64,000 bases of DNA from Nitrosopumilus sp. (GTDB lineage: Archaea; Thermoproteota; Nitrososphaeria; Nitrososphaerales; Nitrosopumilaceae), in NCBI GenBank assembly GCA_965205215.1, contig OZ242041.1:1024001-1088000 (forward strand). Direction: 5' to 3'. Shown here one piece after another: positions 27,679 to 33,990 of the stretch. The position numbers were made by a program, and so were the translations under genes. The stretch's first letter is position 1; every line of letters begins with the position of its first letter. The notes under the pieces are model-generated. The model made no database searches. It was not told the DNA's origin and saw only the letters and a list, made by a program, of their open reading frames with translations.

Positions 27679-27874
27679 TACACCCCTGCTCTCTAAAGGC
27701 TACTTAGTCCTGTAGTGTATAGTCTATGTATGCGTATGATGAAACATGTGGGGTATGATCTGCCCTATATGCATATGGTTGCGGGGTTCTGCTGTGAATT
27801 CGTGAGCCGGGCGCGGCTGGCCCCTGAAGGTCATATGGCCGTACAAAAACCGAATTCTTGAAAACGGAATCGTC

Positions 27875-28885
27875 TCACAGGTGCTTTACCACGAATCCGG
27901 ACTCCTTGCAGCCGTCATAGTTGTGGCGTATCTCTGTGGGCCAGCCCTTTCCCGTATCGAGAAGATCAAGCGATTTTCTCATCTCCCTGAGCCGGTCGTA
28001 ATAGCCGTGGTTTCTCTCAATCAGACACTCTGTAAACTCTGGTTGTACAAGCGAGTCGCTCTTTCGCAGGTTGCAGTTCTGGCAGCTGAGAACCAGGTTC
28101 CAGGGATCGTCGTCAAACATGTAGGACCACGGTATGAAGTGGTCGACGTTTATGTAGTGCCTCTCCAGTCTTGCCCGGCAGTAAAAGCAGTGGGTGGAGT
28201 CCCTGAACATGGTGCGGTACTTGTTGAGGCTGCCCCTCCTCGCGTTGGCATTCTCCAGCTTTGAGATTAGCTTGGGCATGGTGTTTATCTTTTCAAGATA
28301 CCGTGTCCACTCCACCAGGACTGCCTTTAGCAGCACATCGTAATGGCTGCTCAAAAACTTGGATATTCCATCCTTGAGGTGGATCATCTTTTCCTTGTCG
28401 CTGTGGGTGTAGAATACGCCTGCCTCCTCCTTGCTGAGCCCCCTGATGTTCTGGAACCTGGGAACGACTTGGGATGTGCCGTTGTTTTCGTTTCCAAACA
28501 CCCTCTTCATCATGCTCTCTTCTGCCGCCTCCTTGGCCTCTCTGTCGACGTCCTTGAACAGCTTGGCGGGATCGCTTCCAAACCTCTCCTGAATGATCTG
28601 CACGGCATGGGGCATGCTTTTCGTGCTAAAGCTCTGTTTTATTCTGAATAGGGACTCCTGGTGCCAGTAGTACTTTACAAAGGATTCTGCAAGATAGTCA
28701 TACGGCACGTGATCCCTAATGCTAGGATCTGATCCGTAGTCCGCCTGCTTTCTACAGTGTTCGAGCAGGGCCCGGGCCAGCGCGAACTTGTACGTGTTGC
28801 TCTTGCTACCCTTGGTTAGTATGCGCAGGAATGCCTTACGTAACTCGGCATCCGACGGAACCCCGGATCCCATGGGTGAATTCAT
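27875..28885 (-). CDS. HNH endonuclease domain protein (putative restriction/defence nuclease)
   Basis: N-terminal TYKFALARALLE; C-terminal CFYC...VDHFIPWS...NLVLSCQNCNLRKSD; lower GC than flanks; start uncertain. Confidence 0.85.
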   Translation of the reverse strand: MNSPMGSGVPSDAELRKAFLRILTKGSKSNTYKFALARALLEHCRKQADYGSDPSIRDHVPYDYLAESFVKYYWHQESLFRIKQSFSTKSMPHAVQIIQERFGSDPAKLFKDVDREAKEAAEESMMKRVFGNENNGTSQVVPRFQNIRGLSKEEAGVFYTHSDKEKMIHLKDGISKFLSSHYDVLLKAVLVEWTRYLEKINTMPKLISKLENANARRGSLNKYRTMFRDSTHCFYCRARLERHYINVDHFIPWSYMFDDDPWNLVLSCQNCNLRKSDSLVQPEFTECLIERNHGYYDRLREMRKSLDLLDTGKGWPTEIRHNYDGCKESGFVVKHL

Positions 28886-28943
28886 ACCAGAGACCAATAT
28901 ATTCTGGTATGCGGTAGCGGGTTGTGGTTACGGCCGCGGCCGG

Positions 28944-29013
<70 letters not shown>

Positions 29014-29035
29014 AACGCATGTAAACCTCCGGCTT

Positions 29036-29160
29036 CAAGCAGCGCCGTTGGCTGACCCCTACCCACACATGGCACATGATGCCTTGTTGTTGAATGGGGC
29101 GATCCGAGCTGCGGCGATAGTGGGGCACGACCCCTGATAGATGGGTGCAGCTTCCAGCCT
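29036..29160 (+). ncRNA. Putative bridge/seek RNA of the IS110 element
   Basis: By-eye fold: a 5' hairpin plus two stem/internal-loop/hairpin arms; loop sequences match the target flanks (10/10 and 8/8 nt) and partly the donor junction; ends approximate. Confidence 0.72.
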
Positions 29161-29189
29161 ACAAAGTGAAAGAAAAGGGAGGTGAGAAA

Positions 29190-30266
29190 GTGAAAAGCAT
29201 AGGAATCGACATCGGAAAGAAGAGATGTGTCTATTGCATACTGAACGAGGAGGGGGCGATACTTGAAGAATCAAGCTACGCCAACACAGTGGCCGACGCG
29301 CGCGCAGTGGCAGATAACGTGACGGCAAGATACGGCGCGTGCCAGGCCGTCTGCGAGTCCACCGGAAACATGTGGCTGAAGACGTACGAGGAGTTTGAGA
29401 AGGGCGGCATCCCGATCAAGCTTGCAAACCCGCTCAAGACAAGGGCCATAGCGGAGGCGAGGATAAAGACGGACAGGCTTGATGCAAGGATTCTTGCCCA
29501 CCTGCTGAGGACCGAACTCGTGGCGGAATGCCACGTGCCCGCGTCACACATACGCGAACAGAAACAGATCCTCAGGCACAGGGAGAGCCTGGTGCAGGAC
29601 AGGACCCGGGCGGCAAACAGGATACACAGCCTGCTTGACAGGTACGATCTTTGCATGCCCAAGGCAGGTAGCGGCATTATGGGCGCGGCCAACATGAAGT
29701 GGCTCGAGGGACAGATGCTTCCGTCGGAGCACAGCAACCACGTGATGCGCCAGTCCCTCAGACAGATACGACAGATCAGCCGCGACATAAGACAGCTTGA
29801 GAAGACCGTCGACAGGATGGCCCTGGACAACGAGGACGCCAGAAGGATAATGAGCCTGACAGGGTTCAATTCCTTCGGGGCCCTGCTGATAGCGCTGGAG
29901 ATTGACGGCATCGGGAGGTTCCCCACGCCCAGGCAGCTCGTGTCGTGGATGGGGGTGTGCCCGACCATACACCAATCCGGAGACACGCTGCACCACGGGA
30001 GGATGAAGAAGGACAGCAACAGGAGGGTGAACTGGATGATGATACAGGCTGCGCAGACCGCCTCGTTCAAGGACGAGAGGATGAAGGCAGTCTATGAGAG
30101 GGTGAGAAAGAACCACCCGCACGGAATTGCCGTAAGCCACGTGGCAAACAAGATGGCGACGATAATCTGGCACATGCTGACGTCAAAGACGCTGTACGAG
30201 CAGAGAAAGGATGCGCTCTACAAGACAAAGCTTAAGAAGATAGCAAAGCAGAGGAACACAGGCTGA
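29190..30266 (+). CDS. IS110 family DEDD transposase/recombinase
   Basis: IGIDIGK, CESTG, KTDRLDA (DEDD tetrad), PTIHQSG (catalytic Ser region), VANK; GGAGGTGA Shine-Dalgarno before GTG 29190; intact frame. Confidence 0.95.
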   Translation: MKSIGIDIGKKRCVYCILNEEGAILEESSYANTVADARAVADNVTARYGACQAVCESTGNMWLKTYEEFEKGGIPIKLANPLKTRAIAEARIKTDRLDARILAHLLRTELVAECHVPASHIREQKQILRHRESLVQDRTRAANRIHSLLDRYDLCMPKAGSGIMGAANMKWLEGQMLPSEHSNHVMRQSLRQIRQISRDIRQLEKTVDRMALDNEDARRIMSLTGFNSFGALLIALEIDGIGRFPTPRQLVSWMGVCPTIHQSGDTLHHGRMKKDSNRRVNWMMIQAAQTASFKDERMKAVYERVRKNHPHGIAVSHVANKMATIIWHMLTSKTLYEQRKDALYKTKLKKIAKQRNTG

Positions 30267-30313
30267 AAGTAACCAGGATGGCCGTGGAACGACGCCGCCG
30301 GAGTTTACATAGA

Positions 30314-30366
30314 TGTGTGGTTGTGTGGTTGTGTGGTTGTGTGGTTGTGTGGTTGTGTGGTTGTGG
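30314..30366 (+). repeat. Tandem repeat (TGTGTGGT)6 + TGTGG, right flank of the IS
   Basis: Counted directly. Confidence 0.95.
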
Positions 30367-30389
30367 CCGGCTGGAACAAGCAGTCGCGA

Positions 30390-32054
30390 TCACTGCGCCG
30401 CGCAGCTGATTATGAGGTCCATCTCGCCTGTGTCATGGCAGGTGTCCTGCGCGCCGTCCGGCCCCCCGCCGTCAAGGACGTTTGCGCCCGTCCCGCCGAT
30501 TATGATGTCGTCGCCACTGCCGCCCCTGAGTATGTCGTCGCCGCCTCCTCCCATTAGGTGGTCGTCGCCGGGGCCTCCCAGTATGACGTCGTCGCCGCCG
30601 CCGCCGAATATGCAGTCACTGCCGCCACCGCCGTACACTATGTCCCTGCCCTCCTGGCCGAATATGAGGTCCGGCCCGTCCGTCCCGTTGATTATGTTGT
30701 TGTCAGAGTCGCCGGCTATGTGGTTGTATGCCGTGTGCTGGATGCCGCACGCCGTGACGTTCACGTACTGGTGGGCCACTGCTGCGTTCCCGTGGCCGTC
30801 AATCGCGGTCCACGTTATGGTCGTGATCCCGACTGGGAACGCGTCCGGGGCGTCTGAACGTATCTCCGCTATGCCGCCATCGCCATGGGCGTCCGCCGAG
30901 CCCGTGTCCACGAGAGTGAGCATTCCGGTCGCGTTGACGGTTATGTCAGGCGGGGCCTCGACGGTTGGCGGGGTTCTGCCCTGCTGCTGTCCCTGCTGCT
31001 GCAGCGTTTGCGATGACGTGTCGTTGCCCGCCGCCTGCTCGTGGGATGACGCATTGTACTGCGGCGTCCTGAACGCGTGTATGGTATGGCCAAGCGAGTC
31101 CACCACGTACAGCTGGCCGTCTATCCCCACCTCCACGTCGGTGGGGAATACGATATCCGAATAGATCAGTCCAAGCCGCTCGAACACGCTGATCGGCTCC
31201 GAGCTGGCGCTCAGGTTAAGGTGCATCACGTTTTGCGAATGGGCGTTTATGACGCGTATCATGCCGTTGCCGTCCAGCTTTATGCTCTCGGGCATGAACT
31301 GGAACGGGCCCGACGCATAAAACACGTGCGACTCGACGTACGTCCCGTTTGCCGTATAGTGGTCTATCCTGCCGGCGCCCCTGTCCGATACGTACAGGCC
31401 GCCATCTGCGGCCACGTCTATGGAGTGCGGCGTCACGAATCTGCCCGGCTCCGTGCCGGAGCCGCCAAAGGAGAGCACAAACTCGCCGTCGGACGTGAAC
31501 TTTTGCACGCGTTGGTTGCCCGTGTCCACCACGTACACGTGCCCGTCGGCGCCGACTGCCACCCCGGTCGGCATGCTCATCCTGCCCTCCGCGTTGCCGC
31601 CGCTTCCCCACTGGGCCACGTAGTTGCCGTTTGCGTCGAACTTTTGCACGCGGTTCAGATCCCTGTCGGCCACGTATATGTAGGCGCCGTCCGTCGCGAT
31701 CCCGGACGGGTACCTGAACTGCCCGTCGGCGCTCCCCTGTCCTCCCCACGCCGCAAGGAACGCGCCGTGCGAGTCGAACTTTTGCACGCGCTTGTTGCCC
31801 AGGTCGGTGACGTACACGCTGCCCTGCCCGTCCACTGCTATGAACTGCGGGTGCGCAAAGAGGCCCTCCCCGCCTATCCCGTACGAGCCCCACTCGTACA
31901 GGTGCGTGCGCCATCCGTCGCTGAGGGTCGCATGCGCGGTAGCAGTAGCGGCGCCGGCCCCGTACTGCATCGGGTTGTCAACTGCCGCCATGGCCGCCGC
32001 CGCGGCCACGCATGCTGCGGCAATGGCATATGTCGTAGTGCGCGCGCCCGTCAT
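30390..32054 (-). CDS. Secreted NHL-repeat beta-propeller protein with HYR-like domain and RTX-type Ca-binding repeats
   Basis: Signal-like N-terminus; repeats of F..P.GIA.D..VYV.D..N.RVQKFD; PVGITTITWTAIDGHGN; GGxGxD nonapeptides. Confidence 0.87.
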   Translation of the reverse strand: MTGARTTTYAIAAACVAAAAAMAAVDNPMQYGAGAATATAHATLSDGWRTHLYEWGSYGIGGEGLFAHPQFIAVDGQGSVYVTDLGNKRVQKFDSHGAFLAAWGGQGSADGQFRYPSGIATDGAYIYVADRDLNRVQKFDANGNYVAQWGSGGNAEGRMSMPTGVAVGADGHVYVVDTGNQRVQKFTSDGEFVLSFGGSGTEPGRFVTPHSIDVAADGGLYVSDRGAGRIDHYTANGTYVESHVFYASGPFQFMPESIKLDGNGMIRVINAHSQNVMHLNLSASSEPISVFERLGLIYSDIVFPTDVEVGIDGQLYVVDSLGHTIHAFRTPQYNASSHEQAAGNDTSSQTLQQQGQQQGRTPPTVEAPPDITVNATGMLTLVDTGSADAHGDGGIAEIRSDAPDAFPVGITTITWTAIDGHGNAAVAHQYVNVTACGIQHTAYNHIAGDSDNNIINGTDGPDLIFGQEGRDIVYGGGGSDCIFGGGGDDVILGGPGDDHLMGGGGDDILRGGSGDDIIIGGTGANVLDGGGPDGAQDTCHDTGEMDLIISCAAQ

Positions 32055-32167
32055 GGCGCAGGATGGCCGAATCCGACAATAAGGCGCCGGGTTTGCAATG
32101 GTTCTCCATTTTGTCAAATTTTTGTCAGTACCTGCAGGCCGCCGCCGCCGCGGCCGCCGCCAGGCCT

Positions 32168-32974
32168 TCAGAACGGCTTGTTGACGTCCCTCGTGAACAC
32201 GTAGCCTGCGACCACCGTTATGCATGCGACGAAGGCCGATATTATCCCGAGCCCGGCCAGCATGGCTATGCCGCCCTCCGAGACCCCCGTCATCATCTCC
32301 CTTATGAGGAGCACCGCGTACGTGACGGGGTTGAACTTTGCAAGCGTGGCGAGCCACTCCGGCAGCAGCTCGAGCGGGAAGAGGGCGGGGCTGAGCATGA
32401 ACAGCGGCATGCCGAGCATGTTTATCAGCCCCCAGAAGGTCTCCTGCGACTTTGCAGTGGCCGCCACCGTCACGGATATCCCGGCGAACCCCAGCGAGAA
32501 CAGTACGACGATGCCCATTATGGGGGCGATCATCAGGGGGTCCTCGAACGTGACCCCTATCGCGAGCGCGATTCCGAGTATGAGGCTGGCCTGCAGCGCG
32601 GATATCAGGGAGATTGCCGCCATCTTGCCCAGGGCGATCGAGGAGCGCGAGATCGGCGTGGTGAGCACCTTGTTCATGAACCCGTACCGCCTGTCCCACA
32701 GCGTGTTGACGCCGCCGAATATGCTGGTGAATATCGCCGTCAGCACTATCACGCCGGGCGCCATGAACTCGATGTACTGGCCGTCGAACCCGACTGACTC
32801 TATGAGCGGCTGGGTTCCGGCAAACGTGTTGCCCACGACTATTATCCATATGGCCGGCTGGATGAGCCTGATGAACACCCCGCTCTTTGACTTTTTGTAC
32901 CGCTTTATCTCGCGCCAGAATATCGTGTACGCGTCGTACGCGGCCGACGCGCGGAGCGGTGCGCCGGGGGTCAT
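32168..32974 (-). CDS. ABC-2 type transporter permease
   Basis: FMAPG, DRRYGF, FPLELLPEWL...NPVTY. Confidence 0.9.
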   Translation of the reverse strand: MTPGAPLRASAAYDAYTIFWREIKRYKKSKSGVFIRLIQPAIWIIVVGNTFAGTQPLIESVGFDGQYIEFMAPGVIVLTAIFTSIFGGVNTLWDRRYGFMNKVLTTPISRSSIALGKMAAISLISALQASLILGIALAIGVTFEDPLMIAPIMGIVVLFSLGFAGISVTVAATAKSQETFWGLINMLGMPLFMLSPALFPLELLPEWLATLAKFNPVTYAVLLIREMMTGVSEGGIAMLAGLGIISAFVACITVVAGYVFTRDVNKPF

Positions 32975-33990
32975 GGCGCCCCGACCCCCCTCCTCCTCCT
33001 CTTCCTGGCAAGATCCAGCCCCCGGCTGAACCCGGAGTCCTCCTCGTCCCTGATCTCGTGCCCCGTATGGTGCAGGAACACGTCGTCAAGCGTGGGCCGC
33101 GTCACGCTGATCGCGTCTATCGCGACGCCGCACCTTGACGCGGCCCCGAATATCTTGGGGACCGCCCCGGTTCCGTCTGACGCCACCATGGTTATGGCCC
33201 CCGAGCCGCCGTCGCGCCTTATGCCGGACAGCATCCCGTCCATGCCCTGCAGCTCCCGCAGCATTCTGTCAGAGTCGGCCCGCGGCACCTCTATTGAGAT
33301 CATCTCGCTGCCGAGCGCGTCCTTCATGCGCCCCGGGCTGTCTATGGCCACTATCCTGCCGCCGTCTATTATGCCGACCCTGTCGCAGAGGCTGTCTGCC
33401 TCCTCCATGTAGTGGGTGGTCAGGAAGACGGTCACGCCGTACTCCGAGTGTATCCTCCTGATATAGTCCCATATCTTCCTGCGCGTCTGTATGTCGAGCC
33501 CGACTGTCGGCTCGTCGAGGAACAGCACGTCGGGCATGTGGAGCAGCCCCCCCGCTATGTCAAGCCTCTTGCGCATGCCGCCGGAGTAGCCCACCACCTG
33601 CTCGTGCTGCTTTTGCTCCAGCTCCACCAGGCTGAGCATCTCGTCTATGCGCGGCTCCGCCGTCCTTTTCGGCATGTGGTTGAGCCTCGCGTGCAGCTGG
33701 AGGTTCTCCCGCCCCGTCATGTACTCGTCCACTGCAATGTCCTGCTGGACGTATCCTATCTTCTGCCTGACGCTCTTGGGTTCCCTTGAGACGTCGGCGC
33801 CACCGACAAAGGCCTCGCCTGAGGTGGGCCTGAGCAGGGTGGTGAGGATCATCATGGCGGTGCTCTTCCCGGCGCCGTTGGGGCCTAGGAACCCGAATAT
33901 CTCCCCGCTCTTGACGCTGAATGATACGTCGTCGACCGCGGTTACGCGGCCAAACGACTTTGTCAGGTGCCTGGTCTCTATGGCGTCCAT
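32971..33990 (-). CDS. ABC transporter ATP-binding protein (DrrA-like)
   Basis: GPNGAGKST, YSGGMRKRL, FLDEPTVGLD, TTHYMEEAD. Confidence 0.93.
   Translation of the reverse strand: MDAIETRHLTKSFGRVTAVDDVSFSVKSGEIFGFLGPNGAGKSTAMMILTTLLRPTSGEAFVGGADVSREPKSVRQKIGYVQQDIAVDEYMTGRENLQLHARLNHMPKRTAEPRIDEMLSLVELEQKQHEQVVGYSGGMRKRLDIAGGLLHMPDVLFLDEPTVGLDIQTRRKIWDYIRRIHSEYGVTVFLTTHYMEEADSLCDRVGIIDGGRIVAIDSPGRMKDALGSEMISIEVPRADSDRMLRELQGMDGMLSGIRRDGGSGAITMVASDGTGAVPKIFGAASRCGVAIDAISVTRPTLDDVFLHHTGHEIRDEEDSGFSRGLDLARKRRRRGVGAP

Follow-up and report, generated by a model that had tools for sequence, protein, structure and literature searches.

A probable bridge RNA-guided insertion sequence of the IS110/IS1111 superfamily in Nitrosopumilus

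Does an archaeal insertion sequence (IS) encode, beside its own recombinase, an RNA that reads the site in which the element resides? The question is raised by a 64,000-nucleotide stretch of Nitrosopumilus sp. DNA (GenBank assembly GCA_965205215.1, contig OZ242041.1, positions 1,024,001 to 1,088,000 of the forward strand), to which we refer throughout as the window. Recombinases that work with bridge RNAs or seekRNAs were described in 2024, from bacteria. An earlier note, made from the letters of this stretch alone, had pointed to such an element here and to a readable RNA upstream of its gene. A base-by-base check places a 1297-bp IS110-family element, designated E1, at window positions 29015-30311, with GA flanking each side. 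It is very likely that E1 is an intact, single-copy IS of the IS110/IS1111 superfamily that encodes a DEDD/Ser recombinase together with a bridge (seek) RNA matching its site. E1 is an archaeal example of the RNA-guided bridge recombinases already known and, judged by its sequence, is probably functional.

The recombinase gene (29190-30266, forward strand, as are all features of E1 described below) has a frame that is open from a GTG start at 29190 to a TGA stop at 30264-30266 and encodes 358 amino acids (aa). It is preceded by a Shine-Dalgarno-like sequence, GGGAGGTGAG (29177-29186), which is conserved as AAGGAGGTGA in relatives. The product contains the domains that Pfam names DEDD_Tnp_IS110 (PF01548, 7.4e-31) and, after it, Transposase_20 (PF02371, 2.9e-19), and passes the NCBIfam model NF033542, 'IS110 family RNA-guided transposase', with 242 bits where 140 are required. 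Among solved structures, the recombinases of ISCro4 and IS621 come closest (E ~1e-10), and the match to IS621 has a phmmer E-value of 4.7e-10. Residues D7, E56, D95, D98 and S263 align opposite D11, E60, D102, D105 and S241 of IS621 (IS621 chain, offset +2), which are given as the catalytic residues of that enzyme in a passage of PMC11208158. Because of these domains, the NF033542 score and the aligned catalytic residues, the gene is judged to be intact, within the limits of what sequence can show.

The gene is bracketed by a non-coding left end (LE) of 175 nt (29015-29189), which houses the bridge RNA gene, and a right end (RE) of 45 nt (30267-30311). The GA that the earlier note had seen at both junctions is present as the core dinucleotide, its left copy at 29013-29014 and its right copy at 30312-30313. 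That note had no mention of a pair of subterminal inverted repeats, ATGTAAACCTCCGGC on the left (29019-29033) and GCCGGAGTTTACAT on the right (30297-30310). These are 14-15 nt long and differ by one indel, the left copy being one base longer; counting the core at each end, the extensions outside them measure 6 and 3 bp. Similar repeats recur across the family, with a score of at least 8/10 in 28 of 49 instances. Outside the core on the left is the left target half (LT), TTGTTGTT (29005-29012), which is formed by the final units of a (TGT/GTT) array (28988-29013) and has the same letters as positions 29084-29091 of the left target guide described below. The right target half (RT), TGTGTGGTT (30314-30322), is the opening unit of a (TGTGTGGT)6.5 array at 30314-30365.

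Upstream of the recombinase gene lies a structured RNA of ~117 nt (29047-29163) with two internal loops. Its basal stem, P1, is formed by GTTGGCTG (29047-29054) and CAGCCTAC (29156-29163). Within it, the target-binding arm (29056-29099) has an outer stem CCCC/GGGG, an internal loop and an inner hairpin GGCA/TGCC at 29071-29083, and the donor-binding arm (29107-29152) has an outer stem AGCTGC/GCAGCT (29107-29112 and 29147-29152), an internal loop and a hairpin GGGG/CCCC at 29122-29134. Both arms emerge from RNAalifold and from covariation. The two arms had been folded by eye in the earlier note, and every loop and stem coordinate given there agrees with the sequence on re-checking; the fold is borne out by the comparative data that follow. 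One part of that drawing did not survive: a small hairpin, CAGC (29040-29043) with GCTG (29051-29054), is unconserved, its 3' half serving instead as the 5' strand of P1.

When 401 genomes of the class were searched with the protein, relatives turned up in 64; this tally counts both the genome of the window itself and an unpublished one (G282) whose sequence was left unused. For the family tests, 70 recombinase loci were collected. Apart from a contig labelled Gemmatimonadales, the close matches lie on records labelled Nitrosopumilus, Nitrososphaerales, Nitrososphaeraceae, Nitrosopumilaceae and Thaumarchaeota, which supports the thaumarchaeal host proposed in the earlier note. Among these relatives the region 5' of the gene can be aligned end to end. 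The alignment used for structure, A1, comprises 26 of 32 loci (L008-L010 and L012-L040); those omitted are L009 (the same as L010), L022 (near-identical to L021), L016 and L017 (truncated in the 230-nt extraction), L029 (at a contig end) and L033 (which has no such RNA). The RNAalifold consensus of the 26 sequences consists of the basal stem, a first arm, a short linker and a second arm of like build. Standard pairs fill 92.8% of its cells, compared with 78.2% in column shuffles and 35-47% when the partners are slid by 1-3 columns. Both-side (compensatory) changes occur at 19 of the 24 base pairs, and none of 500 shuffles matches the observed value on any of five structure measures. In the basal stem, all eight pairs vary on both sides. 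The inner stem of the donor arm also covaries; its outer stem (five pairs) is nearly invariant and is uninformative because the pairs hardly vary.

A covariance model built from this alignment, R1, recovers the motif at 68 of the 70 loci, always 5' of the gene and on the gene strand; the two that it misses are L033 and L074. At one of the matched loci, L018 (G152), the inter-arm linker carries an 18-nt G-rich insertion, a G run followed by AGAGGAGGAGG, and the R1 score is 101 bits. A search of 14 further loci returned six matches: five on records labelled thaumarchaeal, the sixth on a contig of 1.8 kb with the label Gemmatimonadales. No credible match came from the haloarchaeal, Rhizobium, Paracoccus, Klebsiella, Altiarchaeota and Planctomycetes loci among those 14, as may be expected of so narrow a model.

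The internal loop of the first arm contains sequences that match both flanks of E1. On its 5' side, the right target guide ACCCACACAT (29061-29070) is antisense to the core A and right flank at nine of ten positions; within it, CCACACAT (29063-29070) is the reverse complement of the core A plus TGTGTGG, the latter being the right flank at 30314-30320. On the 3' side, the left target guide TTGTTGTTGA (29084-29093) reads in the same sense as LT plus core (29005-29014) and matches at all ten positions. The A that follows directly at 29094 equals the first base of LE, a handshake-like arrangement that holds in 21 of 24 unique pairs (A/A in 17, C/C in four). When the 175-nt LE of E1 was shuffled 20,000 times, the left-junction 10-mer appeared in one shuffle, the right-junction antisense 8-mer in 203, and both together in none.

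The same relation holds across the family. Each guide was compared with the flanks of its own element and, by an identical procedure, with the flanks of elements that have unrelated guides. The left guide test used 66 of the 68 full RNA hits (L020 is without upstream DNA, and the guide of L077 was extracted short), and the right guide test used the 58 instances whose right end is defined by the donor guide rather than by the guide being tested. For the left guide, the 59 unique pairs average 7.5/10 with their own flanks and 5.25 in the control, and 56% reach at least 8, compared with 0.7% of controls. By position, the last seven bases match in 88-95% of cases and the first two are at background; the guide terminates in GA in 53 of the 56 family instances counted. 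For the right guide, the 54 unique pairs average 6.2/9 as against 3.4, with at least 7 reached in 44% as against 0.8%, and its variable positions 3-8 match in 54-81% of cases (23-31% in the control). In this scoring E1 itself has 10/10 on the left and 8/9 on the right. The consensus target has about five free bases, T-GA-TG and about six free bases. The match of loop to flank that had been read from E1 therefore holds for E1 and for its family against permuted controls, and the check proposed with it, guide/flank covariation in other copies, has now been run, with guides tracking their own flanks.

The loop of the second arm corresponds in the same way to the ends of the element. The left donor guide ATAGATG (29137-29143) equals the last 3 nt of RE followed by the core GA and the adjoining 2 nt of the right flank (7/7), the right junction reading ATAGA|TG and the loop carrying ATAGA at 29137-29141. 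Among relatives, the 7-mer is found exactly within 800 nt downstream in 49 of 58 instances, with an estimated chance of ~0.05 per window of that size. The right donor guide GGCGA (29113-29117) is antisense to bases 1-5 of LE (ACGCA), and across 31 unique pairs such guides average 4.03/5, compared with 2.52 for the ends of other elements. In E1, the middle three of the five bases pair, namely the GCG at 29114-29116. Both the donor match and the weakness of its GCG side, as described in the earlier note, are upheld. In some elements the two cores are unequal and the junction dinucleotides differ; L023, for instance, has a left GA and a right GG.

The most direct indication that the guides specify the site comes from elements that appear to have been reprogrammed in nature. 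Over 1551 nt, L021 and L051 share 97.5% identity; of the 12 columns at which their RNAs differ, nine fall within the two guide segments. Their insertion sites end in CTACTGA and AATTGTGA, in agreement with the guides. The G152 and G036 families display a like pattern, in which near-identical elements with different guides occupy matching sites. Taken with the protein models and the covariation of the RNA, this guide/flank matching across the family supports the earlier view of E1 as an intact RNA-guided recombinase, so far as sequence comparison can do so.

Several observations nevertheless weigh against this reading. The minimum free energy (MFE) fold of the E1 RNA alone has a z-score of only -0.57, with 53 of 200 shuffles folding as well, and Rfam contains no family that reaches its gathering score (seven matches of 11.6-17.3 bits, where 42-100 are called for). 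Since the z-score is weak and Rfam empty, the support for the RNA is that of comparison and not of energy. A search for RNA runs that contain the stretch returned none. The permutation controls overstate independence because the family sequences are related. The right donor guide of E1 pairs at just three of five bases. The IS621 model asks for matching cores, and in 21 of 56 instances the left target guide and the left donor guide carry different cores, mostly GA in the former and GG or AG in the latter. Finally, E1 has a single copy in its own genome, a 2.10-Mb contig, and two sites that fit its guides are unoccupied; at both, the right half matches 9/9 and the last 6 of 10 positions of the left half plus core match. 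These free sites have near-identical contexts (G000:C1 near 946575 and 952771, minus strand) and are predicted, from their letters, to be secondary targets of E1.

Some of these points suit a different explanation, which is that E1 and its RNA are real but form an inactive fossil, immobile in this lineage. The single copy, the two well-fitting sites left empty and the 3/5 right donor guide are what such a fossil might present, as are decayed relatives in the same genome, one with its gene cut after ~50 aa and another frameshifted. We consider this improbable, since the frame is open, all five catalytic residues are kept, and both ends and the four guides are intact; moreover, related populations lack the element at this locus, and copies ~97% identical occur on other contigs. 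The population evidence comes from contigs of four runs (four studies) that were compared with window positions 27800-31500. In record 6 of run X3, 28764-28935 is joined to 30388-31500 through 75 other letters, and in record 27 of run X9, 28916 is joined to 30388 through 93 other letters, in each case without the element. Both runs also contain E1 contigs, which differ by ~2.5-3%. Because X3 and X9, from two studies, hold contigs both with and without it, E1 is an insertion polymorphism among close relatives. Two other searches for the empty site were negative: a left-flank search for the orthologous site in 101 species genomes of the same genus gave weak partial matches only, and a search of Joint Genome Institute (JGI) metagenomes by way of the neighbouring HNH protein gave 82 pattern matches and no relative.

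It is highly improbable that the flank-like repeats in LE act as DNA, whether as protein-binding sites or as hairpins of single-stranded DNA, rather than as RNA. The empty search of RNA runs leaves this explanation some room, as do the covariation tests, which by themselves cannot separate an RNA fold from a fold of single-stranded DNA. The stems, however, contain frequent G-U and U-G pairs (for example, UG:8 at pair 5-184), which would be A-C mismatches on the opposite strand, and the fold therefore belongs to the coding strand; the motif is always on that strand, between the end of the element and the start codon. In addition, IS621, ISEc11 and ISEc21 are reported to use such an RNA, in the sections of PMC11208160, PMC11208158 and PMC11187229 that deal with them. 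The last alternative, that the matches arose by chance against low-complexity flanks, or that the ends have been wrongly placed and the 'flanks' are really part of the element, has a negligible probability and is refuted within the reach of sequence analysis: the flanks are indeed (GTT)n and (TGTGTGGT)n arrays, and the right-junction 8-mer alone recurs in the 203 shuffles mentioned, but the two junctions are never matched together, the same loop positions fit non-repetitive flanks in dozens of relatives, the flank common to copies of one element amounts to only ~7-8 nt per side, and contigs of other samples lack exactly this stretch.

How a guided insertion of E1 might proceed can be sketched from IS621. 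By analogy, we infer transcription, RNA-protein binding, a circular intermediate and the strand chemistry. The bridge RNA would be encoded in the 5' leader of the recombinase transcription unit and would fold into the basal stem closing two arms, each composed of stem, internal loop and hairpin, the second (donor) arm reading the joined element ends. The recombinase-RNA complex would excise E1 as a circle with an RE-GA-LE junction, and this junction would synapse with a guide-fitting site, NNNNN-T-GA-TG-NNNNNN, with strand exchange at the core dinucleotide.

Candidate signals for expression of the RNA can be found in the terminal repeats. Their A/T-rich part (TTTACATA on the right; ATGTAAAC on the left, ~25 nt upstream of P1) resembles the TATA box of archaea and could serve to start the RNA, whether from the left end or by way of the circle junction. 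In the MFE fold, CCTCC in the left repeat (29026-29030) pairs with GGAGG of the Shine-Dalgarno sequence, and such pairing could silence read-through transcripts. Many relatives (L019, L020, L023-L027, L030 and L032) have an RE of 130-200 nt with a conserved motif, ..AGCGTTAGCTATAAA..AGGCACGGATC.., that includes a TATA-like box facing the element end. E1 is without this motif because its RE is only 45 nt. In those relatives the motif might act as a promoter directed outward, from which the RNA would be transcribed through the circle junction.

By its domains, catalytic residues, two-loop RNA, target loop, donor loop and shared core, E1 belongs to the IS110 superfamily, and these protein models and layout features uphold the IS110/IS1111 assignment of the earlier note. 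In every feature visible in the sequence, the system resembles IS621 and the seekRNA elements in its mode of working. Its place within the superfamily is less simple. Like IS621 of Escherichia coli (IS110 group; bridge RNA; PDB 8wt6), E1 has a DEDD and Ser recombinase. Passages of PMC11208160 and PMC11208158 describe for IS621 further features that E1 shares, namely an RNA in the left end, 5' of the gene, with the target loop before the donor loop, and loops that each hold one guide per DNA strand, the guides overlapping at a 2-nt core; a handshake-like base after the 3' guide is likewise described (PMC11208158). The two differ in loop order, which is left guide, hairpin, right guide in IS621 (PMC11208158) and right guide, hairpin, left guide in the E1 family, and in the core, which is CT in IS621 and GA (or GG) in the E1 family. 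The inverted repeats of E1 are 14-15 nt and subterminal, compared with a reported 2-3 bp in the IS110 group. In E1 both arms are closed by a covarying basal stem; IS621 has a 5' stem-loop instead, a basal stem being undescribed in the literature passages on it. Because the host of E1 is archaeal, a sigma-70 junction promoter such as that of IS621 is inapplicable. Set against a narrow definition of the IS110 group, E1 has the long upstream non-coding region with its RNA (LE 175 nt, RE 45 nt), and has neither the left-guide-first order nor the absent or 2-3-bp repeats.

In other respects E1 resembles the IS1111 elements with a seekRNA (ISEc11, ISKpn4 and ISPa11). It shares their subterminal inverted repeats, for which the group criterion is 7-17 bp in the passages that define it (PMC11208160, PMC11187229). 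The complement of the top strand is placed 5' of the match to the bottom strand in both, and the 6- and 3-bp extensions of E1 correspond to the rarer pattern quoted for IS1111 elements (both from portions of PMC11187229). In the IS1111 group, the long non-coding region and the RNA lie downstream of the gene, whereas in E1 they lie upstream, so that E1 has the repeats and the guide order of that group without its downstream region. This mixed layout has precedent, because PMC11187229 lists, in one sentence, a few IS1111-family elements whose non-coding region is upstream (ISMtsp17) or that have long ones on either side (ISHvo10, ISAcp5), the placement being like that of E1 to the extent of this one-sentence description. 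Read from the layout alone, guide order, repeats and extensions point to the IS1111 group and the position of the RNA to the IS110 group.

The best plasmid match to the recombinase (33.5% identity) belongs to an IS110-family element on pHSR2-01 of the haloarchaeon Halanaeroarchaeum sulfurireducens (NZ_CP008875.1, 52.8-54.2 kb; L107). When this one copy is inspected by eye (L107 ~980-2375), it has an upstream-RNA layout like that of E1, as well as subterminal inverted repeats. By the same inspection, the 5' strand of its loop, GTGTCTAAACAT, is antisense to the right flank TGTTTAGAC. At the left junction GGCCTTGAC is present and is repeated in the loop, the 3' strand of which equals the left flank plus GA. 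The right end closes in TTCATAGG, and RE ends in CATAGG. Unlike the RNAs of the E1 family, that of L107 escapes model R1. The best bacterial plasmid match, from Rhizobium (31% identity), has a short LE and a long RE, which is the usual IS1111 layout.

The surroundings of E1 have features of their own. The element sits precisely between two compound microsatellites (window 28945-29013 and 30314-30365): upstream, (CTG)15 is followed by a (TGT)8.7 array that reaches 29013, and downstream lies the (TGTGTGGT)6.5 array. In the 2.1-Mb genome, (GTT) with at least six units and (TGTGTGGT) with at least three units each occur only beside E1, and the repeated units are the half-sites read by its two target guides. 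Tandem repeats in the flanks were considered as a family trait and dropped, since they were found at five flanks (three left, two right), compared with 16 of 1360 control 50-mers. On the left, E1 is neighboured by a gene for a 340-aa protein with an HNH endonuclease domain (27875-28897, minus strand) and on the right by one for an 899-aa protein with NHL and RTX-type repeats (30390-33089, minus strand); E1 thus lies between the start of the former gene and the end of the latter.

The same genome contains a second element, E2 (L009 and L010), whose recombinase is 43% identical to that of E1. E2 occurs as two identical 1383-bp copies, inverted and ~1.6 kb apart, at G000:C1 ~682007-683390 (minus strand) and 685029-686411 (plus strand). 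Both left junctions fit its left target guide. No right end could be defined for E2 in this genome, where there is no inverted-repeat partner and no ATAGG, and both copies end at the same base. Motifs resembling the bridge RNA also occur without an intact gene at three places (L114-L116), namely G000:C1:1576778-1576895, 692248-692385 and 2000090-2000204, all on the minus strand. One of these is followed by only ~50 recombinase codons, one is E2-like with a broken frame, and one is weak (22.9 bits).

A broader proposal can be built on these observations. It holds jointly that the archaeal clade has a distinct third bridge-RNA layout and that the microsatellites flanking E1 are products of its own repeated or abortive recombination. 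On the first part, the Nitrososphaeria (and, by eye, the haloarchaeal plasmid) would combine IS1111 polarity and repeats with a 5' RNA and a basal stem, would transcribe the RNA from a TATA-like motif within the terminal repeat, and would tolerate unequal cores. Taken together, the proposal is an unlikely one; if true, the third layout would link the IS110 and IS1111 groups in evolutionary terms.

To specialists, the finding of E1 will be expected rather than surprising. We found no publication that singles out thaumarchaeal bridge RNAs, although the supplements of large surveys may list these elements. The large bridge RNA surveys did include archaeal genomes, as excerpts of PMC11208160 and 10.64898/2026.10.21.760802 indicate. 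What the family adds is a set of ~60 natural guide/target pairs that define a code, with a fixed T-GA-TG, about five programmable bases on the left and about six on the right, and clear cases of natural reprogramming. To our knowledge, the ammonia-oxidising archaea have no routine genetic tools, and a compact native recombinase (358 aa with a ~120-nt RNA) that would already work with the transcription and translation signals of archaea offers a sensible basis for developing one. The mixed layout of the E1 family bears on the divergence of the IS110 and IS1111 groups. It likewise bears on the descent of Nop5 from IS110 recombinases, which has been proposed in a part of 10.1101/2024.06.21.599552.

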